Below, in pieces: positions 1,197 through 51,054 of a DNA stretch of 51,054 nt; position 1 is the stretch's first letter; the number at the start of each line of letters is the position of its first letter. The position numbers and the translations under genes were made by a program. A model generated the notes under the pieces. The model had not been told where the DNA came from and made no database searches. It worked only from the letters and a program-made list of their open reading frames with translations. Origin of the DNA: Pseudovirgaria hyperparasitica (lineage: Eukaryota). Location: assembly GCA_010093815.1 (NCBI GenBank), contig ML996571.1, one strand, 5' to 3'.

Positions 1197-1830
1197 ACTG
1201 AGGGATTGACGGTATAGCGAGGAGCGCGAGCTCTTGCGTCCAAGATGCGAGGTGTAGGCAGAGGTAGGTTTGCGGGGGCGCATTTGGTATCATCCGCCAG
1301 CTCGGGAGCTCGAAAAGCCCCACATGCTCGGGATCATTGATAGGAGACAGAGTAAATCTACTTCAAGCAGAGTGAAAGATTGTGATAATCTGCACGCAAT
1401 AGCGCTGGCTGATAAAGATTCGTCAAGAACTGTTCAATGTCATAACATGGTCCTGAAAGTGTGCCATCCACGAGAACCGGGCAATCGGCTCTTGGATTAC
1501 AAGGATCTGCTGCTTAAAGACTGTAATATTGCACAAAAATGACTTTCTCAGTTGCTAGTTCTGCCTCTACATCGTTTTGCGTTAGAAATTTTTGGAGTAT
1601 CGGCTGCTGGTTGCGCAAAACCAGTTCATTGAGAAGCGCAGGATTCCTTCCCATGGGTGTCAATGTATCGTGATTGTACCTGACTTCTTCAATTAGAATA
1701 CACCTCCGCAAACGCAATTGTATGCGATTGATGTCTTTTCATACATCTATCCTAACGCCTTTCGCCGCCCGTGCTTTTCAAAACTCCAATGCGTGATGGT
1801 ACATCTTCCTTCGAATCTCTAACGTATTGA

Positions 1831-2919
1831 CTACTCGCGCTTGAAAGGTGGCCCAGGAGGACCACCAAATTGACCTCCAGGCGGCGTCGGCCCGCCGTGA
1901 GGAGGCATACCGAATGGCATGCCACCAGGTGGTGCGCCTGGGGATTGACTCATGCCAGGTCCTCCGGGTCCCATGTTTGGAGGGAAGAAGGCTGGCGGCG
2001 GGAAGCCATTCGGTGGCGGAAATGGCATCCCCTGGGGTGGTGATCCGCCTGGACCGTTCATAGCACCAGGAGGGAAAGGAGGCGGGAAAGGCATACCGTT
2101 CGGACCTGGGCCAGGAGGTGGGCCCCCATTCGGACCAGGAGGCATGTTTGGCGGCGGAAAAGGGAACGGCATACCACGTCCCCCAGCTAAGAATTGATCA
2201 GCAAGTACCTCATAGGAATCGAACGTATAAGAATATGGAAGGTCATGGATGGATGTGATAACTACCCCATGTGTCTCTGGGAGGTCTATTTGCAGATCTC
2301 ATGGGCTCATTATATTGGTGATAGGTATCGTGGAACTGGTTGAAATTGCTGAATGGAACATTGAACTCACGTCCTCCAGGGCCTGGCATTGGAAACGGCG
2401 GTGGCATACCTCGACCTCCTAGAACAGAATTTAGGAGGTGCAGATTAAGAGACACACACGTCAAGACATACCTGGGGGTGGGAATGGGAACGGGGGTGCA
2501 CCGAAACCACCAGGAGGCCCGGCCATGGGTCCAACAGGTTGTTGTAGCATTGGATTTTGTGCCTCTTGACCAGCGGCCGCGTATGAGTTTGTGATCGAGT
2601 CTATGACACTCTGCGCTTTTTCGTGTCCAATCTCTGTAAAGCTGTTAGCTGCCTGCTCCAACATCTCAGCTCTATTGGGGGACGCTCGTTGATAATAGTC
2701 GACGACATTGCGGAGGTGATTCCTTCCACTGTTGTGCGCTTTTCGTACACTCATAGAGTCATGTGTGAGGTAGACATCGCAATAGTCACCTTCTGTCTGT
2801 CAGCATTCATGGCTTCGGCGCGTGGTGCGGAGATGAGGCGGAGGTGACCCTACAGAAGAGTAAGGAATAGTTAGCTAGGCGCGCGGTGTAGGAAGGTGGT
2901 GTGACTTATATTTCGGCAT
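1831..2919 (-). CDS. YHC1: U1 snRNP protein C (matrin-type zinc finger plus Pro/Gly-rich tail); proposed exons 2919-2910, 2859-2854, 2789-2688, 2633-2472, 2418-2371, 2186-1831 (227 aa)
   Basis: The spliced model reads [51 protein letters not shown], the canonical U1-C N-terminus. All five introns are phase 1 and exon lengths sum to 684 nt. Introns 1 and 3 need non-canonical ends (see findings). Confidence 0.92.
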
Positions 2920-3389
2920 CTTGATCAGATTGTAAAGCTTTTGAGCGTTTTGCGACCCTTCCTCGGATAGGTATTGTGTTGTCGACAGTCAATGAAACCT
3001 CAACCTAAAGTCGCGTCGGTACGAAAGCTATCAGTTTCGGCACAACTTCGGAGCGCCGGCTACTTGACGTGGACGCATGTTTTTTTTGCTTTCATGCTTC
3101 TCCGCCTCGAAATACTCAATTGTGGTATATTGTAAAGCGGGGTGAGCTTTTTATGATTCAATATACTGCTGTGAATCCTAGCATTGTTCTTATAGCTATA
3201 CCTTACACGAACCACCTGGACAGGAGACGAAAACAAGAGTCGCGTGCGAAAGTGGCGGGCCAAGCACTGGGGGACTCTGGAGAGCAAAGCCCCACAAAAA
3301 AATCTAGAAGAACTCTTGGTGTGGCATATCAACATACTACCTAATAGTCCTGCGACGACGAGTAACGCCAATATCTCCACGTCGCAGCG

Positions 3390-35769: not shown

Positions 35770-36930
35770 TAGTACCCCGGGGTGTTATCTATCCCGATTC
35801 CGTATATAGATGAATTAACTTCCTTCTATAATATAATATATCTATTAATAAGATTATTACTATTACTAAAGTTAGTAAGAATATAGTATATAGAACGAGG
35901 TTTAACCTTAAGATATATAGATAGAGAAATAAACCGCGGTTAATGCGTCGTGGTCCACCTCGTTAACTAAGCGATTATATAATATAATAACTACTTAAGA
36001 GACTACTTTATAAGGGCTGGCTATACCTTAATAAGATAGCTAGATAGATATATAAAGAGTTTAATCTTACTATATCTAAATAGCTTCTATCTAAAGAGTT
36101 ATCTAAGTAAGGGTAGAATTATAAGCTATTAAAATATATTAGTAGTACGCGCTTAGAGATAGTATATACTTTATACCTTAAGGATATCACGGAGCTACTA
36201 GTAGACTTATATATCTTCTTAGATAAGGTTATTTTTAATAAGAAAATTAGATAGAGGCGTCGAGCTAGAGTACTAAAAGGATAGACTCTAACTAAGATTA
36301 GTACTCTTAATTAAGGACCTATATATAGCGTATATAGAGCTATTATAGCTAATAGTTTTATCTACTATTAGATAAAGGAAGGTTATTTCTTAATGGATAA
36401 GTTCTATACCTAGCTATAAATATACCTATTACCTACCCTTAAGGTAAAATACCCTAGGCGTATAATAATAATTATTATAGATAATCTCGTACTTTATATA
36501 AACTAATAGATTAAGCTACTTATACTTAGCGCTAGCTATATTATATAGTATACGCTACTATACTTACCTAACTTTAATTCTATTAAGCTTATATAGATGG
36601 TAATAAAGGTATAGATTTATAGATAGTATATCTAGATATATTAGTAATCTCGAACTTTTAAGGACTTCCTCTATATTATATTTATATATAGCTATACTAA
36701 TTAGTAGGCTCTATACTTCTTTAAATATACTATAGATAGATACTATATTAATGAGACGCTCTAGTAGAAGGTAGTTACTAATTTAGAGAGCTTTAGATAA
36801 GGTAGAGATAGTAGAGAGGTTACTAAAGTTAAGGAGATTAGGAGACTTTTTTACGAACTCGTTAAGTAACTTACTTATTACTAACTTACTAATAAGTAAG
36901 TTACTTAGCTAGCTAGTAATAGTCTATATA
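35770..36930 (+). mobile_element. RIP-inactivated Tc1/mariner (IS630-Tc1, DD34E) DNA transposon relic; ends approximate
   Basis: One frame gives FLDK (de-RIP FLDE, 36216), IIIDNL (36471) and YLPNFNSIK (de-RIP YSPDFNPIE, 36561). The second D and the E are separated by 34 codons. TIRs were not identified. Confidence 0.75.
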
Positions 36931-36949
36931 TATATCCGTTTTAGATACT

Positions 36950-38113
36950 ATTCGTTAAGTATATAGCCTTAATATATAAATATATACTCCTAAATATACT
37001 CTAAGAAATACTATACTATCCCTATCTAAATACTAGTTATACTAGTTATAGTAAACGCCTAGAGCGAGGACGCCGCCTTACTTACCTTAACTTACTTCTT
37101 ATACTTATAAAGGTATAGACGTACGTCTAGTAGGATACTAAGTAGAATACCTACTATCTTCGCGGCTTTATAATAAGTAGTTCTAGGCTAAGTTATCTCC
37201 TTAATATAGCGGTAAGTATAGTAGTTATTATCTATATATAGTCTTAATTCGTGTATCCTAGCCCTTATCTTATTATAAGTCTCTATCTCCTTATACTATT
37301 TAAGAGCTAATAGTACTATATCCGCCTAGTAACGCCCTAGTTATACTAGACTACTAAAGGTTTCTATAACTCGTGTCTAAGGGAGTGTTTTACGACGAGT
37401 CTTATAAGTTAGTAAATAATTTAAACTATAAGTAGATAGAGGGTAAGGTTAAGGTTAAGGTTAAGGAAACGTAGATATCTATATAGGTATTATAGGATTA
37501 AACCTATAACGCTATAATTCTATCTAATAAAGTAGTTAAGTATACGTAAGCTTATCTTTATTATCTTAATAATATCTCGCCGCCGCCTCCTCACGCTTAA
37601 TTATCGCCTATCTTATCTACTTATCTTAAAGTCTTATATTCCGCTTCTTATAATCTAACTTAGCCTCCTTATATCGTAATCTCTTTATTTTAAGGCGCTC
37701 GAGTATAGAAGTAGTACTTCTATTAACGGTAGTTAACGAGGTACTAGTTCTACTACTAGTTTAAGACTTTCTTAGGCACGGTCGAGTAATAATCTTATAG
37801 AATAAGTCTATTAACGGCTTATCCTTAGTTATACCTTAAATACTATTAATAATATTATTAGCCTATAGCTCTAAGATAGTCTTATCTACCTTATAGTAGA
37901 GTATTCTATTAGGTAATATAATCTTATAGTACTAACCTTAGTAGTTTATATACGTCGCCTTACTATACTAGAGCTTACTCTAAATATTATTAATAATAAC
38001 TTCTTAGTTACGGCCTCGCTATCTTCGCTTCTCCTATAATTTAAATAGCTATTTTAAGTATCTCTTAAGGTTTAGATATTAGGACTTAGTCTTAGATAGA
38101 ACCTAATCTACAT
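36950..38113 (-). pseudogene. RIP-degraded ORF of unknown family
   Basis: The minus-strand frame from ATG 38113 looks protein-like, with TAA/TAG stops. A possible de-RIPed C-x4-C-x-N-x4-C..H cluster lies near 37880-37970. Confidence 0.3.
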
Positions 38114-38399
38114 GTACCTTAGCTAATAGGGTTAGGAGGTAACGTAAAGGGCGGTAAATAGTCACGTACTAGATAGATCGGCGTCCCTTTATATATATAC
38201 TCTCGGATTTCTACCGAAAGGGTTTAGTAGTAATTCGTTCTATAATAGAATATACCCTATTATTCTATCTAACTATACTACTATCTAATAACCCTATTCT
38301 TATATTCGAATTACTCCCTATATAGTACTATAGTTAAGATAGTCTAACTAGAACCGGGAAGGTCGACACGATCTACTATAGGGATAAGTAATACTATAT

Positions 38400-39230
38400 T
38401 AAATAATAGGGATCCTCTATAATTAGTACTAATCCTAGCCATTTCTAACTAAGAAGTAGAAATATTAGACTAAATTATAGAGCTTTTAGACGAAGAAATG
38501 GTAGAGACGCCGAGTAACTTCTAATAATATAAAGCCGGATAACGAGTCGTGGCGGAGCCACGCGAGGTATTATAATAAACTATCGCTGAACTTTAGGAAT
38601 ACGTCGCGAATTAGGCTTAAGAGATTTAAACTCTTAAAGAATAGGTAGAACGCGCGAAACTCCTCGTAAAGAGACGAGAACTTAAGGAGTCTCTTAAAGA
38701 ACTACGCCGAACGATAGTAGGTAGACGACTTCCTATACTAATTTAGGCGGAATTAGTTTACCTACCATTAGAGTTACGATAATCTACTATATACCTAGCC
38801 GCTTCGTTACCAATTTACTCTACTTCTTCCCTAGGTATACTAAAACCTAAAGACCCGACTATATTTATAGAGAAGAACTAAAAGGAGTAGAAAGACTAGA
38901 AGAGAGACTACGAAAAGTACTTCCTTAATAACTCTCTACTCTTTTCTACTAAAGTATAACGTATTTCGTTTAGAGAATAATACCTAGACTTGTAATCCCG
39001 GGATTAATAGGATAGATAGAAGGAAGTATAGCTACTATCTACGATAACCTAGGAATATTTAGCTATATTTATACTAAACACTCTCGGAACGGATAGAGAA
39101 CGTGAAAGAAAGATACTATCTAAGTTAAGAAGCGTAGTATAACGACCGAACTAGATATCTACTTAACTACTATAATACCTCTAAAACCTATAGAATAATA
39201 TCCCTATACTATAGAAAAATATTTATATAT
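38400..39230 (+). mobile_element. RIP-degraded gag fragment of a host LTR retrotransposon, cut off by the 39231 LTR
   Basis: De-RIPed reading KPKDPT.F.GKNQKEWKDWKRDCEKYF..TWE.L..F.L..LG..Q..NQ resembles a retrotransposon gag capsid. Confidence 0.55.
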
Positions 39231-39602
39231 TGTGGAAGGCCGCTCCTGCAGCCCTATATGTATATGTCCCTAGCTCGATTACATGGCTTCATTATATATT
39301 TAAGGAGGGCGTTTTCCTTGGTCATTCTACTCGGCGCGCTTCCCCCATTACTAATATTCGACTATTCGATCTTTCCTTATGTTTATGGGCCTCTATGGGT
39401 ATTAATTATTAGGCTTAGCTATTAAAGAATTAATTAAGAGTATTATATAGACCCGTCCTATTATAAAAGAGAACTAATAAGAAGTCGTGCGTTTAAAGAG
39501 AACTCATAATACCTAGGAGAGATACTTGTAAGTTCGTCGCGACTACTATACTAGGAACACAGCCATTTATAAAAGAGACATACGTGGCGATAGCTTACCA
39601 TA
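39231..39602 (+). repeat. 5' LTR (372 bp)
   Basis: Starts TGTGG and ends CCATA (RIPed CCACA, the inverted terminus). Colinear with 50298-50669. Confidence 0.93.
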
Positions 39603-39606
39603 ATTT

Positions 39607-39623
39607 TAGAGGTCGTACCTAGA
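39607..39623 (+). promoter_or_regulatory. Primer binding site, probably tRNA-Gln
   Basis: TAGAGGTCGTACCTAGA lies 4 nt after the LTR and de-RIPs to TGGAGGTCGCACCCAGA, complementary to a tRNA 3' end ..GACCU-CCA as in eukaryotic tRNA-Gln (inference). Confidence 0.6.
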
Positions 39624-40222
39624 CTACGAACTTATAGGGGGAGATTAGGACTCCGAAACCAGCTTAGGGGAAGTATATGGCGTGCCTAATAAGGTAGTCT
39701 AGACTTACTAGATCGAAGCCACGAGTCCGGAAAACAGGGAGTCCGGAGTCGCTAGGGGCTAGCCTCTTAAAAGTAGCCGTAAAAAGTATGCGTATACTAA
39801 TACGGGTAATAGCGCGACTCGAAAATATCTTAGGGGAATAGAATATAAAATAGAGCTAGATGAAGTAGTAAAGAAGAGTTTAAAAACGATAAATATAACC
39901 TATTTAGTGCTACTATAGCTGTTATTCATAAACACGGCTATATAAGTATACTACTTTAGGAACGCCTTACACGAAGATAATAACATAAGTAGAATACCGT
40001 GAACCTTATATTAATAAAGACGATAGTAATAGTTTACCTTATAAAGGGATTAGTTAATATAGAGAAGGGATAATAGGTGTTATAGGTAGACGCATTAGGC
40101 TAACCTTTAGTTAAGGTAATCCCTTAACTAATAACCTTACCCCTAGCGTCTCTACTAGCACATCTACTACTAGTAATAGTATGATAGGAGCTTAAAATAA
40201 CGACCTAGTAACTCGTAGAGAG

Positions 40223-43200
40223 ATGCTTAACTTCTTCGTAGCATTTGCGCGATAAGGAAGAATAGTATCTCTATCTACCCTAGCCCCCGAGCGCTTTAAA
40301 GGAATAAATATTACGGCCTTCCTTCGGAAGTATAAGGACATATATATAAACTATAAAGTTCCGCCTAATAAGAAGATAACCTCCCTACCATTATACTACG
40401 AGGACTATCTCCGTCCTACTATTAAAGGAATAAGTAGGTTTTAGAAATAGTAGTAGGCTATACTACGTGAAGAATTATTAAAGGAATTCTCTCTATTTAA
40501 CTCTACTCTCGAGGAAGGTACCATCCACTTTATCTAAAAATACGTGGAAATGGTTAAAGTAGACCCATCCTACTCTCTCCCTATATACTACTCCCGGTAT
40601 CGTGTTATCACGGAGAAACTTACGGCTAAAGAAAGTCTAAGCTTATATTCGCGAATAGAGCTCTTCCTAGAAGGACTACCTAATAGTCTTAAGGCTCGGG
40701 CTATAGAGAAATGTTAACTCACGATAGAAGTATATAGTTACGACTAGGTAATTATCTATGGCTTTATATTATAAAAGGCTAGAGTACTTAAGAAACTAGC
40801 TCGTATTAATAAGCACTCAGCCGTATAAGAGCTAGCCATAGCTATATACTATAAATTAAAGATAGAGAGTAAGAAGACTAGCTTAGAAGAGTAGTCATAT
40901 AAAGAAAGAAGAACTAATGAATTTAACTACCCCTCTCTAGTCGTAGTACACGTTACGCTAGAATCGGATAAGTTTAATAAGATAGTAGAGAGATTTAGTA
41001 AACTAGACCTTACGTTAATTAAGATAAAGTCCTACTTTACCTCTAATCCCTTATTCCTATCCCTTAAGAAGTACGAACCTAAGCTACTTTCGGCTATTAT
41101 TAACTAGTAGGCGCGAAGGCTAAATCTTTTAGCACATCCCTAAGTATAAGGTATACCCATAGAACTAACGTAAGTTTATCCATAGAATTATATATAGAAT
41201 AGAGAATATATCTCTACCCGAGACTCCTAAGGAGGCGTTATAGCCTAGAATAGGCCTTAAAGACTGATCGTGTACATCACGTACGGAGGAGATTACCTAA
41301 TATATAGATATCCGGAGATAGTAGGATATATTAGAGACGGATTACTAAATATTAACGGGGTATAAGTATTCCAAGGGCGTTTCGGGGCGAACGGAGAAGA
41401 AATCCCATTACTACCCTCCTCGGTAGGGCTATAAGCTACTCTATAAGCTATCTAGAACTACGTAGCAACGGTTTAAAACGGCCTAAGCTAGTACGGAGGA
41501 GGAGTAAAGGTTTCTACGTCCGTAGTAAACATTAACGCTTCATAGGGAGTGCCGGTATATAGTATTAGTATAAAACCTACGAAGGGTCCCTACTAGGCCT
41601 CGGTAGATAGTAATTTAGAAGAAGAAGTCACGTCGCCCGAGAGTAAGAAAGATAGATATATAGAATTCCATGAACGCTTCGATATAGCTAGTAATAGATA
41701 TATCCGCGAGGAGATAGCCCTAGAAGAGCCCGCTATACTTATAATATCTAGAAGAGGGATTACGAAGAGTATACCTAATTATACTAAGAAAAGAAAGATT
41801 GCCCGTCTTCGCGGAATGCGTAAAGGGTAGTATATAAGGATTATTAAGGAATAGGAGGACGGCGAGAAGAGTAGCGACTAGAGAATATCTAAATAAGAGC
41901 TAATAGCGCTGGAGAATAAGATAGATAAAGGGGATAGCCTAAATCCTAGTTAAAAGGCACGTATCCGAGGCGTTAAGCTTAATAACTATCTACGCGAAGG
42001 ATAGCGGCTAAGTATAGAAGCTAGTAAAGTATAGCTAGTGCGCGTTCTAGAGACAACCATAAATATTACTATTAGCGAACTATTAAGCCTTAATAGCGAC
42101 TTACGTCGTGCGGTGTTCGAGAAGGGCGCCCCCGACTTTATAGCTAGAGAGGTCTATAAGACTTAAGAAGAGAGAGCCGAGAAGAAAGGAAGAAATAACC
42201 ATACTATGGCTCCCGAGATAAATAAACTTAACGTATTAGTACCCCTCTATGCTACGGGGACGGCTATTACGTAACGAGATATTAATTAGCTTAAGGAAGG
42301 GATAGTAAGGCTAGTGGCCGAGTATCTAAGGTACCCTATGGAAGTTAGTCCTAAAAGGGCGACTAGTATAGTACTATTCGATAGTGGCGCATAGGTAAAT
42401 AGCATTCGACTAGATGCTACGAGGCGTCTTAGGCTAGTAATATCTTTGCTTCCACTATATATAAAGAACTCGAGTTTGGTTAGCGCTACTTAGTATAGTA
42501 CTCTATTTATAGGAATAGTATAGTAATACCCTATCTATATAGGTCGGATTATTACGGCCACTTTAATATTCGTATATAGCGAACTTAATTATAACCTTAT
42601 TCTAGGGGAGCTATATACTAGATAGGCCTTACTTATAGTGTAGAGGTTAGCCTCTAGGTAAGTACTCTTAATAGTCTACTCCGTATATAGATAAGAATAT
42701 ATAACCTTTAAAACTAGTCCGGATAAGTATATTCTAGTCTTAGAGAAGGAGGGTAACTCTATAGCTAGAGACTAACTATATAGCGGAGTATGTCGCCGGA
42801 AGCCGGAGTTAAGCCGGATTATTAGTTAAGGGCTACCCTTAACTAATAATCCGCACTAAATAGGGTCTAGTAAACCTACTAATAAAGGGGATAGGCTATA
42901 TTTTTATACGGATATAGAAATGAGTTATATAGAGTTACTTTCCGAGAAAATCCGGCCTAAAAATATTACTTAGTTATCGAGAAAAGATAACTTAGTCGCC
43001 CTAGTTACGGCGGTAAGGTACGCTACCTTCGTATATAAATAAGGCATAATAATAGAATAGCTTATAGTAGGCTCTACCGGCCTCTAAAGACGGTATTTAT
43101 CCGGGGTATTAAAGGGATTTAGTATAGCTACCATATATAAAAGAAAGGGAGTTAAAGTATACCCCGTGGATGACTCCGAAGCCCACTAAAAGGTTCCTAG

Positions 43201-46200
43201 GAATCTATTAGGGTATCTAGACTAGCGTGAACGAGCAATCGTACGGTAGGTACTTCTTCTAGCTATCCACCTAGGCCTTAACATGTTTAATAGGCTAATA
43301 GAGCCTCGAAGGGTAACTATCCCGCTAGAAACACGTCTAACGCCTCTATATATAAGTTAGCTAAAGATTAGAATGGAGCTACGTCCTACGGAACTTAAGG
43401 TACTATATATAATCTTATTATATCGCGAGGAAGTACTAGTATAGGAATTCTTATACCTTAGTAAATTTAATAAAGAGATGGTACCTCTGTAGGAGATCCG
43501 AATAGTAGAACATAAGGTATAGTAGGCTAAGAACTTTAATATTCCTAGAGCCCTTTATAGGAAGGTACTTATAATTCTAAAAGAGCGTCTTAATAGCGGA
43601 AGGCTCGAGCCCTATAGTAGTCCTTATTAAAATATCTATTTTCTCGTAGAAAAGAAGAAGGAAGCTAATAAGGAACGAGATTATAGGTTAATTAATTCGG
43701 CGATAGAAATTAACCGAGTTACTATTCGTAATACGGCCACGCCGCCCTCGTATAAAGAGTTCTCGGAGCACTTTACGGGGATAGCCGTCTTAACGTTTAC
43801 CGACTTCTTCTTAGGATACGATTAGATTCTATTAGTAGAGTATTACCGAGACTTAACGGGGTTTATAACGCCCCTAGGATTACTACGCGGGATAATATTA
43901 CCTTAAGGGGCCACTAATTTAGTAGCTTAGTTCGTTAGGATTATATTAACTATTATATAAGAATATATCCCGGAGAGGGCTCTACTATTCCTAGATAACT
44001 TAGGTATTAAAGGACCTACGATAAAATATAACTCTAAGGAGGCCCTGCCTAGAATTCGTAGGTATATCCTAGAACATTTAATTAACGTGGATAAGGTTCT
44101 TACGGATATAGAGCGCGCCGGATACGCCCTAAGTAGTAAGAAAACTTAGTAGTATGTTAAAGCCGCTAACGTTATAGGATACGTCTACGATATTAAAGGG
44201 AGGCGACCGAGTAATAAAAAGGTTACTACTATTAGGGACTGGAAACCCTATAAAAACACGATAAATATACGAGCCTTCCTTGGCGTTTATATATATTTCC
44301 GGATATAGATCCCCGGGTACGCTATTATCGCATCGCCGCTATTTATACTATTAAAGAATAAATCGGCCTAGTAGTAGATAGCTAAGGAGTAGACCTTAAT
44401 AGACGCGCTAAAGATAGCTCTAACTACTACTCCCGTACTAATAACGTTACGGTACGGGATAGGTACGGGAGATATAATTCTAGTAGTAGACTCTAGTAAC
44501 GTTAGATAGGGAGCTGCGTTAATATAGGAGAACGAGGATTATAAACGTTAGCTATCGCGGTATAATAGAGGAATATAGTTAAAAGCTAAGAGAAACTACG
44601 ATACCGTGAAGCTAGAGTACCGAGCCCTCCTCTACGCGTTATAGAAGTTCCGGTAATATCTCTATAGCACGTACTTTATTATAGAAATAGACACGAATAC
44701 TCTAGTTACTTAAATTAACCGCACCGTAACTAACTTACTAGGGGCGCTCGTTACTAGGTGGCTCGCGTGGATTTAGCTATAGAACTTTATAGTTAGGTAT
44801 ATACCTAGAAAGCGTAACGTAGTCGCCGATAGTATCTTATAGATATACGAAGGAGAAGAACTACTAGACGTCTCTACCTTTAACCTAGACGAGTTCGTGG
44901 ATATAGCTCTATATATAGACGTGCTAGAGACGTCGTTAATTAAGCCCGTTAGTAGGAGAGATTACACGATAGGGATACTTAACTATACCGCCATTAAGTC
45001 TCCCTTAATAGATAAATATAGTAATAAATAGTAGAGGATTATAAAGTACCTTACTATACTTAAGAGGCTAACTAATCTAACCGACCGAGCGTATAAGGCC
45101 TTTATAACCGACTACCTAAAGTTCCTTATACGTAACTAAATACTCTAGCGGAGAGAAGATAGGCATTACTAATATATACGAGTAATTAAGGATCCGAATA
45201 CTAGGGCGCGTATAATTACCGCTACTTACGATGAGATAGATTATAGAGGTAGTAAAGGGACCCTTAGAAGGATTAAGGATAAGTATTAGTAGGTAGGTAT
45301 ACGTAGAGACGTGTAATAGTACGTGAAAACCTATAACGAATATTAATAACGAAGTAAACTCCTTAGAGGTCTTAATAAAGGGCTCTACCACGTTATAACG
45401 CCTATTCTTTAGTAAAGAATATACTTAGACGTAACGACGCTACTACCTTCTATAGGGTATAGTAAAGTAGTATCTATACGAGAATAGCTAAGCGGATAGA
45501 CTAAGGCGGAGGCATGTACGGCGGCTACGTCTATAGTTATCGTAAAGTTCCTCTTTAAGAACGTAATCTATAGATATAGAATTATTCCTAAAATTATCTA
45601 TAACGGTAGTAGAGAAAATATAGGTACCATAGAGGAGCTCCTCCGACTCTATAGAATTTATTAGAAGGTTACGTCTATATATAATCCCCGAGTAAATAGA
45701 ATTATTAAGAGAAGTTTTATACTACTTACTAATACTCTCACGAAGATAACTAATGGCGGATTTAAGAACTAGCCCGGCCACCTCTATACGGTCGTCTAGG
45801 TAGATAGAATAATGATACGTACTAGTATAGGGTATAGTACTATATATCTCGTGCTCGGCTATAAACTAATCATGCCTATCGAAGTCGAATTCGAGTCGCT
45901 CCGAATACTCCCTTAGGACAAGATACGATTAACGTCCGACTTACTCGCTCTTTAAGCTAGATAACTTAAGAGAAGATCCGAGGATCTTAAGGAGGCCCAT
46001 ACCTACGTAATATAAACGCGTAAGGAATCGAGAGAGGCATAGAATAATAACTATTACCTTCGTTAAGAGTCGTTACTAGTTAATATAATTATCCTCCTAT
46101 ACAACTCGTAGTAATAGAAGGATATAGAGCGGAAGCTAAGGTAGCATTAGAGGGGGCCATATAGAATCTAGTCTGTGTTTAATTATACTTATAAGCTCGC

Positions 46201-46486
46201 GGAGCTTAATAGAGCCATACTTAGAGGGACGTTTCCTAGCTATAGGTTAAAGAAATATTTTATAAGAAATGTAAGTAACGAGAGTCACGATAAGCCCTCG
46301 CGACTACTAATTAGAAGAATTACTAAGGAAAATAAGGAGAGTAGTGATAAGGAAAACTATTATAAATAACTTACGGAACACCTTAACGACGCCACACGAA
46401 CCCGGGTAGAAGTAGTAATTTCTACTCCGTAAGACTTTAATAGAGAAGAATATTTGCGTTTCTCTAGAATCGACATCTCCTTCTAG
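40223..46486 (+). pseudogene. RIPed gag-pol polyprotein, all motifs in one frame (start and end approximate)
   Basis: gag F.G.NIT.FL (40295); protease LFDSGA (D at 42380); RT TDFF.GYD, F.TPLG, LP*GATN (43898) and FLDN>FLDD (43988); RNase H LVVDSS (44480) and KLE..AL; integrase YVKT(C)..(C) (45320) and YNPR.N. All are in the same frame. Confidence 0.9.
42815..42853. repeat. Perfect inverted repeat, 18-bp arms with 3-nt loop (copy 1)
   Basis: cggattattagttaaggg-cta-cccttaactaataatccg, read directly. Confidence 0.95.
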
Positions 46487-46538
46487 GGGATAGAAGTTTT
46501 TTTAAGGAGGGAAGGGATACTTATAAAAGTAGTCTTAT

Positions 46539-47008
46539 AATGATAAACTCTATTATTAAAAAAGGACGATGAACTCCATTATCGAAAGAGGATGATAAAC
46601 CCTATTATTACTATAAAATAATAAAACTTATTATTAAAGTAAGCAATGCTCGAAAGAAGATATAATGGCGTTTACGCGAATTCTATCTACTATATATTAA
46701 AGCCGGTCGTGTAATCAAAGCCTACCTATCGAAGGCCTATTTCGTTACTATAGAACGGGCCCCGTTAGAAACTAATAAGGAAGAAAAGAAGGAGAAGGTA
46801 TAGAAGAAAAAGATACTTATAGGAAGTCTTATAAGGATAAGAATATACCCGGTATCTATTCATTTATAGATTCCGCTATATACCCGGTAGACATATTCAT
46901 TCATAGATTTCCTATGTACCTAGTATATATTTATTTATAAATTCGACACGTATACGGGCCTACGGCCGTTAGTAAGGATCATTTATAAAAATTACTATAT
47001 ACCCGGTA
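46539..47008. repeat. Two short tandem arrays between pol and the cargo ORF: 26-bp units x4 (46539-46642) and TATACCCGGTA-containing units (46844, 46879, 46915, 46998)
   Basis: Read directly; the copies differ mainly by transitions. Confidence 0.75.
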
Positions 47009-47165
47009 TTCGAGGAGGCATAAAAAGGGAACTTAAGATAGTATATAACTCTTCCCTCTTATATCTCTCTATACCTCCTTAATTAATAAAACCTCCTCCT
47101 CTACTTCCGCCTCGCTTAACTACCTCTTCTTAGAACGTAACTCGCTGATAGAACCGATAATAATA

Positions 47166-50099
47166 ATAGCCCCGCCGAAAAAGAAAACGCCTACCTATAA
47201 AGAGTTATAAGATCGTTAAGCACTAATAAGATAGACGCGGTCCTAGTTAAGAGTCATAAGTACTAAAGCAGGGCTATCGACGGCTATCATAGTATCAAGG
47301 CCATCTACTACTCCATACGGATAGGCTATAGAAGCTACGGAAGTAAATAAGTCTACTATTAACCAAATTATCGCTATCTAGAACCCGTAAGAGCGATAGG
47401 ACTATATTCTAGACACGTTTAATAATCTCCTTTATATTACTAGCCTCGTAGAATAGCTCTTAAGTAGTATAGTTAACCTCCTCTAGGAAGTAGAAGCCGT
47501 AATAGGGTATAGTAAGGTAAAGATTAACTCCTCTATTCCGAAAGAAGTCCACGAGATAATTTATTATAGAAGAGATACTAACTTCTATATTCTAAAAGCT
47601 AAAAATGCGATCCTATAAAACTAGCGAAAAGACCTCCCTAATAATAATAGCTAGTTACTCTAATCCGCTCTTAGATAGCTCTAGTAAATATAGAACTTTA
47701 TAGAAAAGCTAGTAGCGCTCTTATAAATGCGGACATAGGTAAGAGCGAGGAACTAGTTAAACATATCTCTATAGTCCCGAATCGGCTAGGGATAGAAGGG
47801 AAGAGGAATTAAGGTATATCTTTAGAGCTCTAATATCGATACCGCCCTAGCTAGCGATAGTAATAAGGACGGTCTATCTCTCTAGTAACTCTTAAACTAC
47901 CCTAGCCGATAAAATAAACTAACATTCTATAATAAGACGGGACTTATTATCCCCGCTAGTTAATAGTCACGGATAAGTAGAATGGTTTATAGGCCCGTTA
48001 AATACTATCTATAAATTAAAGAGATGAGTGCATCGCCTCCGCCTTAGACCTTACCATCGCTAAAACCAGCGTAGGTAACGCCTACGGTAAAGTCCCCTCC
48101 ACGAAGCACGCCTTCTAGTTTAGTAGTACGTCGTCTCTTTAAAGCTAGTTATCCGTTTAAAGTAAGCATTCCTTCTACTACTACTAGTATACGTCCCTTA
48201 CCGGGCCATATAAGAACCTCTTTAGTGCCCGTTACGGCCACGCTAATAAAACCCACTCACGGACGTGCCTTATCTACCGGCCCTTAGTAATTACTAGGGG
48301 CGCCTATACGATAATCCCCGGTTATTCTTAGTTCGTACCCTAAGACGATAGTATCGGTTAAGGAAGAGGACGAGCCTAAGAAGTATTAATACGCGCCTTT
48401 AGTGACGAAGACTTTTAAGGTAGCTATATTATTAAAGAAGAATTTCACGAGTATTAAGGGAATAGCCCTACTAGTACGCTAGAAAGCGTAGATAGGTAAT
48501 ATGGCTATTCCGTATAAAGTCTACTATAAGTATTACTAAGACGTGGCTAGAAAGAATGATATACTTATTAGCGTGTCCTACTTAAACCTAGTAGCGAGAC
48601 TTAAAATAGTATATAAGTTTAGAGATAACGTAGGGGCCCTTAAAGTTTATAAGGACCGCTATACCTAGTTCGCGAAGTACGCGTAGCCACCTTATCCGAT
48701 AGAGGCATTAGGTATCTATCGTTACTAGACCCTAGAGACCCCGAAGTAAGTTATTAATATTAAAACTATCCTTACTAGTATCGCATTTATAATTTAGAAG
48801 GAGGATAGTAGAATAGATAGGTAACTCTTCGATAAGTAGGAACGTACCGGAAGTGTTAATATTAAAGGGCTCTTCGAGCCACTTAAAAAGACGATCTCTA
48901 TACTTAATAAGAGTATTCTAGAACTCGCGAGGGATGAATTTAATATATATAAGTACTACCAGCGCATGTTTAATAAGAAATCGAACTACGGCTGGCTATA
49001 AACTATATACCACTTCTATATCTAATAGTTTATTAGGTAATGCCTACTTTACTAGCTTACCTATATCGCTCTTCGGCCCGATCTTAACTACTATCTAATC
49101 TCGTACCCGTACTATGCGAAGTCCTAGGATAGGGGCGATAAGACGGGTTTTAAGTATCTCGATAACGCCATTAATCGAATCCTCGATCCTAGCGATAGAC
49201 ACGGGTTTAATATAATCTAGGGGAGTATTAGTCTCGACAACGAACGAAGTAACGACTACACTATAATTATTCCCCGCTTCTATAAGTTCTTAAATAAATA
49301 GTAGTTAAAGGCTAAGCTCCGCGAGGGGGTCAATCGAAATAGTATAATTATAGCTATTAACGATAAGATCTATAATGCGGACGATAAGAAATGATTTAGT
49401 CCCTTCGTCCTGGTCCCCTACTAGTCCCTTAAAGTATATATCTCTAGCCTACTAATAATATACGGCGCCTAGGGTCCCGTAAAGGGTGGAAGATACACGA
49501 TGCTTCTATGGTATATCGCGATTAGCCCTAATTACATGATAATAGAAGTACCTAAAATAGGTATATAGGAATAACTCGTAGTAGCTTATAGGAATTTAAC
49601 TCCGGGACCTATGTCTCCGTCGGGATTTTCTAATAAATATAGCGCGATTCCTTTTGCCTTCCTAGCCGTAGTTTAACTCCCGAGTTTTAACGCCGTTAGT
49701 AACGCATTAGTCGGCCGTAAAAGATAGGATAGCTAGGAGATAAAAGAAGAGGCAGCTACGTAGCTTAACGTAAGTCCTTAATAACTTAAAGCTAAGGTAG
49801 ACGCCTAGTTTAAGGAGGGCTCGAGGGTATTCGTAGAGACCTTTAAGAAAATAGTAAGGTAGGAAAGGCTAGTCTATAGGGATAGGTTGTTCTAGAAGGA
49901 ATTTAATAAGGTGCGCGCCGCTAAGCGGCTAATTAATTTTAAGAAATTCGAGTCTAACGCGGGCCTAGATAACGTTAAAGAGAACTTCTATAGATAGGAG
50001 AGGCCTAACGAACTATCTAACGAGGAGGAATCTAACCTCTCTAAGATAAGTAACACGATTCTTTAGGAGCTGGCTCGCGACCTCGAGTACTAAGATTAG
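47166..50099 (+). pseudogene. RIPed cargo ORF (~975 codons): basic N-terminus, helical region, Ser/Pro-rich linker, C-terminal putative 2OG-Fe(II) dioxygenase domain
   Basis: ATA(>ATG) GCC CCG CCG AAA AAG AAA at 47166 is in the same frame as GFK[Y>H]LD (49155), I[*>Q]GSISLDNE, IPRF[Y>H], [Y>H]GA[*>Q]GP (49461) and R.TML[L>P]WY. Nearly all stops are TAA/TAG, as expected from RIP of CAA/CAG/TGG. Confidence 0.75.
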
Positions 50100-50118
50100 G
50101 CGCCTAAAAACCTACCTA

Positions 50119-50154
50119 ATTATTAGTTAAGGGCTACCCTTAACTAATAATCCG
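50119..50154. repeat. Perfect inverted repeat (copy 2), 36 bp identical to 42818-42853
   Basis: attattagttaaggg-cta-cccttaactaataat-ccg, read directly. Confidence 0.95.
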
Positions 50155-50286
50155 GGCTAAGGTTTACCCGCGCCGAGAGGTTTACTAGGGGCGCATTTTA
50201 TTTATATTAAGGTCTTTCTTTTAGGCGTTCTTTACACGGTTTCTTATACGGTTACTATACTACTAAGGGTAGTAGTTCTATAGGCC

Positions 50287-50293
50287 GGGGAGG
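50287..50293 (+). promoter_or_regulatory. Polypurine tract before the 3' LTR
   Basis: GGGGAGG ends 4 nt before the 3' LTR start. Confidence 0.6.
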
Positions 50294-50297
50294 TATA

Positions 50298-50669
50298 TAT
50301 AGAAGGCCGCTCCTATAGCCCTATATATATGTGTCCCTAGCTCGATTACATGGCTTTATTATATATTTAAGGAGGGCGTTTTCCTTGGTCATTCTACTCG
50401 GCGCGCTTCCCCCATCACTAATATTCGACTATTCGACCTTTTCTTACGTTCATGGGCCTCTATAGGTATTAATTATTAGGCTTAGCTATTAAAGAATTAA
50501 TTAAGAGTATTATATAGACCCGTCCTATCGTAAAAGAGAACTAATAAGAAGTCGTGCGTTTAAAGAGAACTCATAATACCTAGGAGAGATACTTGTGAGT
50601 TCGTCGCGACTACTATACTAGGAACACAGCCATTTATAAAAGGGACACACGTAGCGATAGCTTACCATA
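50298..50669 (+). repeat. 3' LTR (372 bp)
   Basis: Starts TATAG (RIPed TGTGG) and ends CCATA; same length as, and colinear with, the 5' LTR. Confidence 0.93.
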
Positions 50670-51054
50670 GTATTTTAATTCTAAGAAGTATATTCGGGTC
50701 GAAACTAACGCATTAGAATTTATAATTACTAGAATTATTAGTTAACCGTATAAAGATACGAAAGATAAGATATAATAGTACCCGGTCGCTTTCTTTTCCT
50801 ATAAAATAGTAGATATAGAGATATATTATAACACGTACAACTAGGAACTACTTATAATTATTAAGAGTTTTAAGTAATAGCGATATTATTTAGAAGGCTC
50901 TATATATTAGATTGAATTATTATCGGATTACGTAAATCTACGTTACTTTATATCGACTAAGGTCCTTAATCGCCGATAAGTACGTTAGGCTAAGTAGATA
51001 TTAATATTTAACTTTAAAATCTTATATAAAGCTAGAAGAGAGAATAAAGCTAAT
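50670..51054 (+). mobile_element. RIPed RNase H region of a second (host) Ty3/Gypsy pol, running off the window
   Basis: De-RIPed reading HFDPKK.IRVETDAS..PVAFFS.K..YDTHDQELL.I..F.QWRHYLEG..SDH.NL.YF..LNRRQ.RW. Confidence 0.85.

Follow-up and report, generated by a model that had tools for sequence, protein, structure and literature searches.

A GA-AG intron is spliced out of the U1-C gene in DNA of the fungus Pseudovirgaria hyperparasitica

Results

Structure of the U1-C gene

We analyzed a stretch of 51,054 nucleotides of fungal nuclear DNA (Pseudovirgaria hyperparasitica, contig ML996571.1 of assembly GCA_010093815.1), hereafter the window. The gene studied here lies on its minus strand, from about position 2919 to position 1831. 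The product of the third exon matched the Pfam family zf-U1 (PF06220) in a profile search (score of 60 bits, cut-off 22; E = 1.8e-16), in agreement with the first-pass annotation, a reading of the letters alone that had proposed U1-C as the product. The zinc ligands (C-C-H-H in MPKFFCDYC...H...H) and the conserved helix that follows the finger fall in invariant columns common to the 25 orthologues that we aligned. The gene encodes the U1-C subunit of the U1 snRNP.

The RNA joints described below set six exons (Table 1), which total 684 nt and form one frame of 227 amino acids that starts with MPKFFCDYC, contains YYQQIGHEKAQ and ends in a single terminal stop. The codon of the first zinc-finger Cys is split and is formed by joining the micro-exon to exon 3.

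Table 1. Exons and introns of the U1-C gene, with positions in the window
Feature	Position	Strand	Sequence and support
Exon 1	2910..2919	-	10 nt; ATG 2919-2917; 2910 is the first letter past the joint in the X4 contig
Intron 1, AT-AC, 50 nt	2860..2909	-	ATAAGT...CTAAC...TTAC; X4 joins 2789 to 2910 with 6 micro-exon letters between; in X3, a loose end connects 2859 with 2910
Micro-exon, 6 nt, TCTTCT	2854..2859	-	AGAAGA on the plus strand, in the joint of the X4 contig; conserved in relatives
Intron 2, GT-AG, 64 nt, weak donor GTAGGG	2790..2853	-	Removed in the contig of X4, kept in that of X3
Exon 3, U1-C zinc finger	2688..2789	-	PF06220 match; invariant alignment columns
Intron 3, GA-AG, 54 nt, phase 1	2634..2687	-	Donor GAGCGT, branch site GCTAAC, acceptor TTTACAG; joint 2633/2688 in X3 and X4
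Exon 4	2472..2633	-	Starts AG ATT GGA CAC; sequence, alignment and RNA joints
Intron 4, GT-AG, 53 nt, donor CAG/GTATGT	2419..2471	-	Contig skip of 53, equally placeable at 2418-2470
Exon 5	2371..2418	-	RNA joints
Intron 5, GT-AG, 184 nt, donor GAC/GTGAGT	2187..2370	-	Contig skip of 184
Exon 6, Pro/Gly-rich tail	1831..2186	-	Stop TAG 1833-1831; RNA joints

Elsewhere in the window, from about 36000 to 51054, the G+C content falls sharply to 0.29-0.40, the TpA/ApT ratio is 1.6-1.8 and the (CpA+TpG)/(ApC+GpT) ratio is 0.2-0.3. This low-G+C and repeat-rich block bears the signature of repeat-induced point mutation.

Exact excision of the GA-AG intron

On the minus strand, the region of intron 3 reads ...TATTATCAAC / GAGCGT...GCTAAC AGCTTTACAG / AGATTGGACAC, where the slashes mark the borders of the intron, which starts after YYQ plus one C. 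The branch site and the acceptor had been described as ideal, and this holds: 11 nt follow the branch A of the consensus site GCTAAC, and the acceptor is YAG. Translation also bore out that the intron is a multiple of three without a stop, such that its retention would insert 18 residues. This combination is expected by chance in about 14% of cases and therefore carries no weight alone.

We searched for the joint in contigs of four public sequencing runs, X1 to X4, all filed under one organism label. The X3 and X4 contigs pass directly from 2633 to 2688 and skip 54 letters, with CT..TC at the borders on the plus strand, which corresponds to GA..AG on the minus strand. The two sides of this joint share no letter (both = 0), so the cut is not placeable elsewhere; it is flanked by 163 and 102 letters, and depth is 0 over 2640-2686 in both contigs. 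The same contigs also skip 2187-2370 (184 nt) and 2419-2471 (53 nt). Toward the start of the gene, the X4 contig joins 2789 to 2910 through the six letters of the micro-exon, and the X3 contig is unbroken from 2688 to 2859, with intron 2 kept, and continues with 17 letters matching 2910-2926, with the AT-AC intron removed. Introns are missing from the X3 and X4 contigs at exact GT-AG, AT-AC and GA-AG borders, four or five of them per contig, and one contig keeps a single intron; this points to spliced RNA as their source, a transcript origin read from the joints alone and not from the run records. Intron 3 is retained in no X3 or X4 contig, contigs being assemblies that drop rare variants, such that a minor isoform with intron 3 retained is possible.

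The X1 and X2 contigs derive from DNA and carry the letters of the window, GA included, over 1700-3100, with 0 other letters and word depths of 308.7 and 273.6. They represent one sample, possibly the source of the window's own DNA, and contain all sampled words; an assembly slip is thereby excluded, but X1 and X2 do not stand for an independent strain. X3 and X4 represent one second sample, from another study under the same organism label, and contain 0.56 and 0.47 of the sampled words. A spliced contig cannot display its own donor, and the strain behind the RNA could carry GT. Over about 930 nt, among them the 64 nt of intron 2 where it is kept, the RNA contigs present 0 letters that differ from the window; this agreement is what speaks for one and the same strain, or for a nearly identical one.

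We conclude that positions 2634-2687 of the window are a genuine spliced GA-AG intron of the U1-C gene. The first-pass annotation, which had proposed this intron with its GA donor and predicted that its removal restores YYQQIGHEKAQ, was right on both counts. It had also named the outcomes that would speak against it. The exact joint in the RNA contigs, the identical DNA contigs and the open frame of 227 codons lead us to reject use of a GC..GAG junction, constitutive retention and an assembly slip.

Several other readings of the 54 nt were considered and discarded. The GC..GAG junction, which would give YYQRIG, is excluded by the exact 2633/2688 joint, and constitutive retention by the lack of the 54 nt in the X3 and X4 contigs. 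Template switching by reverse transcriptase does not fit a joint at which no letter is shared. A-to-I editing of the donor would, by reasoning, yield GG and not GT. Finally, neither the donor GAGCGT nor the branch site fits the consensus of a U12-type intron.

The branch site GCTAAC, the YAG acceptor and the lack of a U12-type donor or branch consensus are the features of a U2-type intron, and intron 3 is presumably processed by the major spliceosome.

Strength of the five donors

We counted the matches of each donor to the 5' end of U1 over the nine positions from -3 to +6, taking the U1 complementarity consensus as a short motif. Donors 1 to 5 present 6, 4 plus 1 wobble, 4 plus 1 wobble, 8 and 6+1 matches, respectively, in keeping with the earlier statement that the first three donors of the gene are poor and the last two good. 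The GA donor lies in the context AAC/GAGCGT and keeps G+1, G+5 and T+6. As had been pointed out, the only nearby GT (at +5/+6) would shift the frame on reading the sequence. The length of the intron falls within the 51-153 nt of the orthologous introns described below.

No better U1 site that could act by proxy was found within -40..+40 of the GA donor: the best one matches 6/9 positions, is without GT and lies 35 nt downstream. A helping RNA structure was not detected either, as the fold of 2624-2697 has a free energy of -17.1 kcal/mol (z = -1.30) and 25 of 200 shuffled sequences fold as well.

Age of the intron position and of the GA donor

Using the read-through translation as a query, we retrieved 406 U1-C proteins at E ≤ 0.001 and aligned 25 of the 120 listed, which were chosen by hand from the top hits and those of high coverage. 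Across the junction, 14 of the 25 aligned orthologues read YY[QE]QIG[HQ]EK. The other 11 have inserts between YYQ and IG[HQ]EK whose first residue is R (in one case L) and whose last is E, and which are otherwise unrelated to each other in sequence and length. This pattern of fixed ends around differing contents is the one expected of a phase-1 intron left unspliced in automatic gene models. The 18 residues are thus not conserved as protein, since insert sequences and lengths differ between species; the 54 nt are also absent from the RNA contigs, so that the possibility raised earlier of constitutive retention with a conserved insert did not materialize. Fungal U1-C models appear, from these alignments, to be systematically mis-annotated at intron 3. 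The read-through models are P0002-P0005, P0007, P0011-P0013, P0020, P0028 and P0034, several of which have wrong N-termini too.

We further analyzed U1-C loci in metagenome contigs, of which 308 were confirmed and the best 80 kept. Of these best 80 loci, 54 (36 distinct sequences) contain an intron at precisely this phase-1 position. All of them present a GT donor (54/54) and an AG acceptor (54/54), and the GA donor was found in 0/54 orthologous introns of this set. The intron is lacking in 25 of the best 80 loci, some of them found on long contigs (70-240 kb), so that its absence is genomic. One further locus (L074) fell outside the parse of our script and reads C/GTTAGT by eye. The distinct donors are GTACGC (7), GTATGC (5), GTGCGC (4) and GTAAGT (4), with GTTCGT, GTGCGT, GTAGGG, GTATGG, GTACGT and GTACGG occurring twice each and GTAGGA, GTTTGT, GTAGGC and GTGAGT once each. 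The donor GTGCGT, represented by two distinct introns, differs from GAGCGT by one letter, at +2.

In-frame stops occur in 16 of the 36 distinct orthologous introns. All 36 are multiples of three, which is probably an artefact of how the best 80 were picked out of 308 loci: they were ranked by tblastn, and the query was a read-through translation, which favors in-frame introns. The closest protein among the matches listed (P0027) is 86% identical over the aligned part, and the closest of the best 80 loci (L015) is 86% identical in exon 3. P0027 reads YYEQIGHEK, in which E replaces the first Q, and its N-terminus is non-homologous.

These comparisons show that the intron position is old and widely shared. 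Given the GT donor of all 54 orthologous introns, GA would have arisen in this lineage by a change from T to A in a donor resembling GTGCGT and is not a conserved feature, a direction of change that we infer from the orthologues. The uniform GT had been listed, together with an assembly error, as a reason to doubt the intron, yet the DNA contigs present GA at a depth of about 300.

The first two introns in related genes

From the best 80 of 308 loci, 60 distinct rows were classed by their introns 1 and 2. Wherever the first intron is AT-AC (21 distinct rows), the donor after the 6-nt micro-exon is GTAG[GA]N (21/21), and the window agrees with this. Nine rows have a GT-AG first intron followed by a second intron, whose donor is GTAAGT, GTGAGT, GTACGT or GTAAGC. 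Another 9 have intron 1 only, two of them with GC donors, and 17 have neither intron; 4 of the 60 rows were left unclassed or are partially spliced. The poor donors 1 and 2 thus appear to be a conserved pair in one fungal group. The pairing of AT-AC with GTAG[GA]N could go back to a single clade, or the two poor sites on either side of the micro-exon could be functionally coupled.

The loci L045 and L058, from two lineages that lack the micro-exon, open their first U1-C intron with GC (GCAAGC and GCACGT, respectively), which indicates that the first U1-C donor departs from GT in several separate forms (AT and GC). Two short metagenome or metatranscriptome contigs are apparently partly spliced U1-C RNAs: in L057, the AT-AC intron is removed and intron 2 kept, and in L071, intron 2 is removed and the AT-AC intron kept. 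From these two contigs, the AT-AC intron and intron 2 seem removable in either order.

In the X3 contig, intron 2 (GTAGGG) is retained while introns 1, 3, 4 and 5 are removed. The slow intron of the gene seems to be intron 2 rather than the GA intron; the removal of the GA intron in both RNA contigs also suggests that it is not the slow one.

Discussion

The interpretation that we favor, with a probability of roughly three in four, is that intron 3 is a genuine U2-type intron of the U1-C gene in which the T at +2 of the donor has become A in this lineage, that it is still removed, and that the spliced mRNA encodes an ordinary U1-C of 227 amino acids. The intron occupies an old and widely shared phase-1 site inside the second Gln codon of YYQQIGHEK, and the donor would have resembled GTGCGT before the change. 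Removal would persist because the rest of the intron is intact: G+1, G+5 and T+6 of the donor, CTAAC 11 nt before the end, the YAG acceptor and a short length of the kind usual in fungi. Such a short intron may be recognized as a unit by the major spliceosome and be carried by its strong branch site and acceptor, in which case splicing would be constitutive, with no dedicated regulatory role. Judging from the behavior of the U2A mutant in yeast, a GA donor would mainly tax exon ligation rather than the recognition step assisted by U1-C. Several points count against this interpretation. The yeast U2A mutant would lead one to expect poor ligation, yet intron 3 is spliced here; the GA donor matches the 5' end of U1 at only 4 + 1 wobble of 9 positions; and two different non-canonical introns in a gene of five introns, which is U1-C itself, would be an unlikely coincidence if purely neutral.

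The first-pass annotation had suggested a regulatory role, in which the GA, AT-AC and GTAGGG donors couple the output of U1-C to the handling of poor 5' splice sites and feed back on the U1-C level. We consider this unlikely, but we do not rate it lower because two different non-canonical introns occur in one gene for a 5' splice site recognition factor. Three consecutive poor donors do lie in the gene of a protein that stabilizes the duplex of U1 and the 5' splice site, the AT-AC intron and GTAG[GA]N donor go together in 21/21 distinct rows, and one transcript contig keeps intron 2. In addition, PMC3632134 reports that yeast U1C-L13F lowers the splicing of most suboptimal 5' splice site reporters, and PMC3798272 that human U1C takes part in a splicing-based cross-regulation with U1-70K. 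However, the GA donor was found in 0/54 orthologous introns and the whole intron is lacking in 25 of the best 80 of 308 loci, such that conservation does not support the GA donor as a part of any such circuit. Both RNA contigs also lack the GA intron, the X3 contig with its retained intron 2 included. Should weak donors be helped by U1-C, the feedback would be positive and not homeostatic: following the U1C-L13F effect presented in PMC3632134, a shortage of U1-C would reduce its own production, a loop that does not tune. In yeast, moreover, the U2A change limits the second step and not U1 recognition (PMC10578475), and retention of intron 3 would produce an in-frame insert, with no premature stop and no switch to nonsense-mediated decay. 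A related version is distinctly unlikely as well: in the clade with the AT-AC intron, the micro-exon and GTAGG, production of U1-C would be tied to the handling of poor 5' splice sites, and GA would be a third poor donor, gained in this lineage and tolerated since such splicing is what the gene is tuned to already. If true, the output of U1-C mRNA would report the leniency of the spliceosome and feed back on 5' splice site choice genome-wide.

The remaining alternatives concern the letters themselves. The DNA and RNA runs come from different samples and different studies, and the donor is invisible in a spliced contig, so the DNA strain might carry a private T-to-A change while the RNA strain has GT; retention in the DNA strain would then yield U1-C with 18 additional residues, as intron 3 is in frame and stop-free. 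This is very unlikely given that the RNA contigs present 0 letters different from the window across all exons and the 64-nt intron 2 and that both runs bear one organism label, and U1-C, an essential protein, would probably suffer from an 18-residue insert placed between YYQ and the helix residues, all of them invariant. The possibility that the 54 nt are coding and that the longer protein is the normal product is barely credible: the intron is indeed a multiple of three and stop-free, and 11 of the 25 aligned public models read through it, but the 54 nt are missing from the RNA contigs, the inserts of the different species have no common sequence or length, 16 of the 36 distinct orthologous introns contain in-frame stops, and a stop-free multiple of three arises by chance with a probability of about 0.14. 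A sequencing or assembly error hiding a true GT would agree with the GT of all sampled orthologues; its probability is negligible, since two runs in independent Logan assemblies give the same letters at depths of 308.7 and 273.6, with no others listed.

A GA-AG intron of a filamentous fungus that is backed by RNA and whose orthologues are all GT constitutes a natural single-letter test of how departure from GT affects ligation. Intron 3 also explains the frequent errors in U1-C gene models, as illustrated by the 11 of 25 aligned public models that read through it. Finally, with a conserved AT-AC intron, a conserved weak GTAGG donor and a product that stabilizes U1, the U1-C gene is a reasonable place in which to look for splicing-based feedback, of which these data show none. 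In the literature on fungal GA-AG and other non-canonical splicing, AT-AC introns and micro-exons, we found no published description of non-canonical introns in fungal U1-C.

Within the gene itself, the closest comparison is the AT-AC intron, which is likewise non-canonical and has its joint in the same RNA contigs; it is conserved in 21 distinct rows, whereas GA was found only in the window. In humans, Brackenridge et al. reportedly described in 2003 a GA 5' splice site in FGFR1-3. That donor, like the one in U1-C, is isolated in a genome of otherwise GT-AG introns and is used efficiently, but the U1-C donor has no better U1 site in its neighborhood (at most 6/9 and without GT within -40..+40). 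The efficient use of a GA donor in human FGFR genes is also noted in PMC7072748, and human donors are ranked by usage as GC>TT>AT>GA>GG>CT in PMC6280755.

Regarding U1 proteins, the human cross-regulation of U1C and U1-70K, as outlined in PMC3798272, also couples the levels of U1 snRNP proteins through splicing, as the feedback considered above would do; unlike the latter, it acts on an alternative exon of U1-70K and not on non-canonical donors within the U1C gene. In the S. cerevisiae ACT1-CUP1 reporter, PMC10578475 describes that the U2A change causes the lariat intermediate to accumulate, with the second step limiting and not the first. The single change from GU to GA at the donor is identical, but in our case the mRNA is the form that was assembled, which suggests that this fungus tolerates the change better or that the context compensates for it.

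Genome-wide use of GA-AG introns has been described for Eurytemora affinis as well as for Oikopleura dioica (PMC5714493 and PMC7072748). There too, GA-AG ends are really spliced, but GA accounts for a percent-level share of introns, preceded by a conserved AG and followed by a conserved A, whereas the U1-C donor is AAC/GAGCGT and isolated as far as seen. A close known case is found in Fusarium graminearum: according to PMC3577648, 0.31% of 2604 inspected introns are non-GT/GC, of several kinds, and the gene FGSG_10550 contains a GA-AG intron of 52 nt. Sanger sequencing confirmed 7 of the 28 genes with non-canonical sites in that study, a figure that covers the whole set. Like the U1-C intron, the intron of FGSG_10550 is a short GA-AG intron of Pezizomycotina that emerged from RNA-seq as a rare exception; unlike it, it lies in another gene, and here the host encodes a 5' splice site recognition factor that also contains an AT-AC intron. 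GA-AG introns are therefore a rare but already described kind, of which intron 3 of U1-C is a further case.
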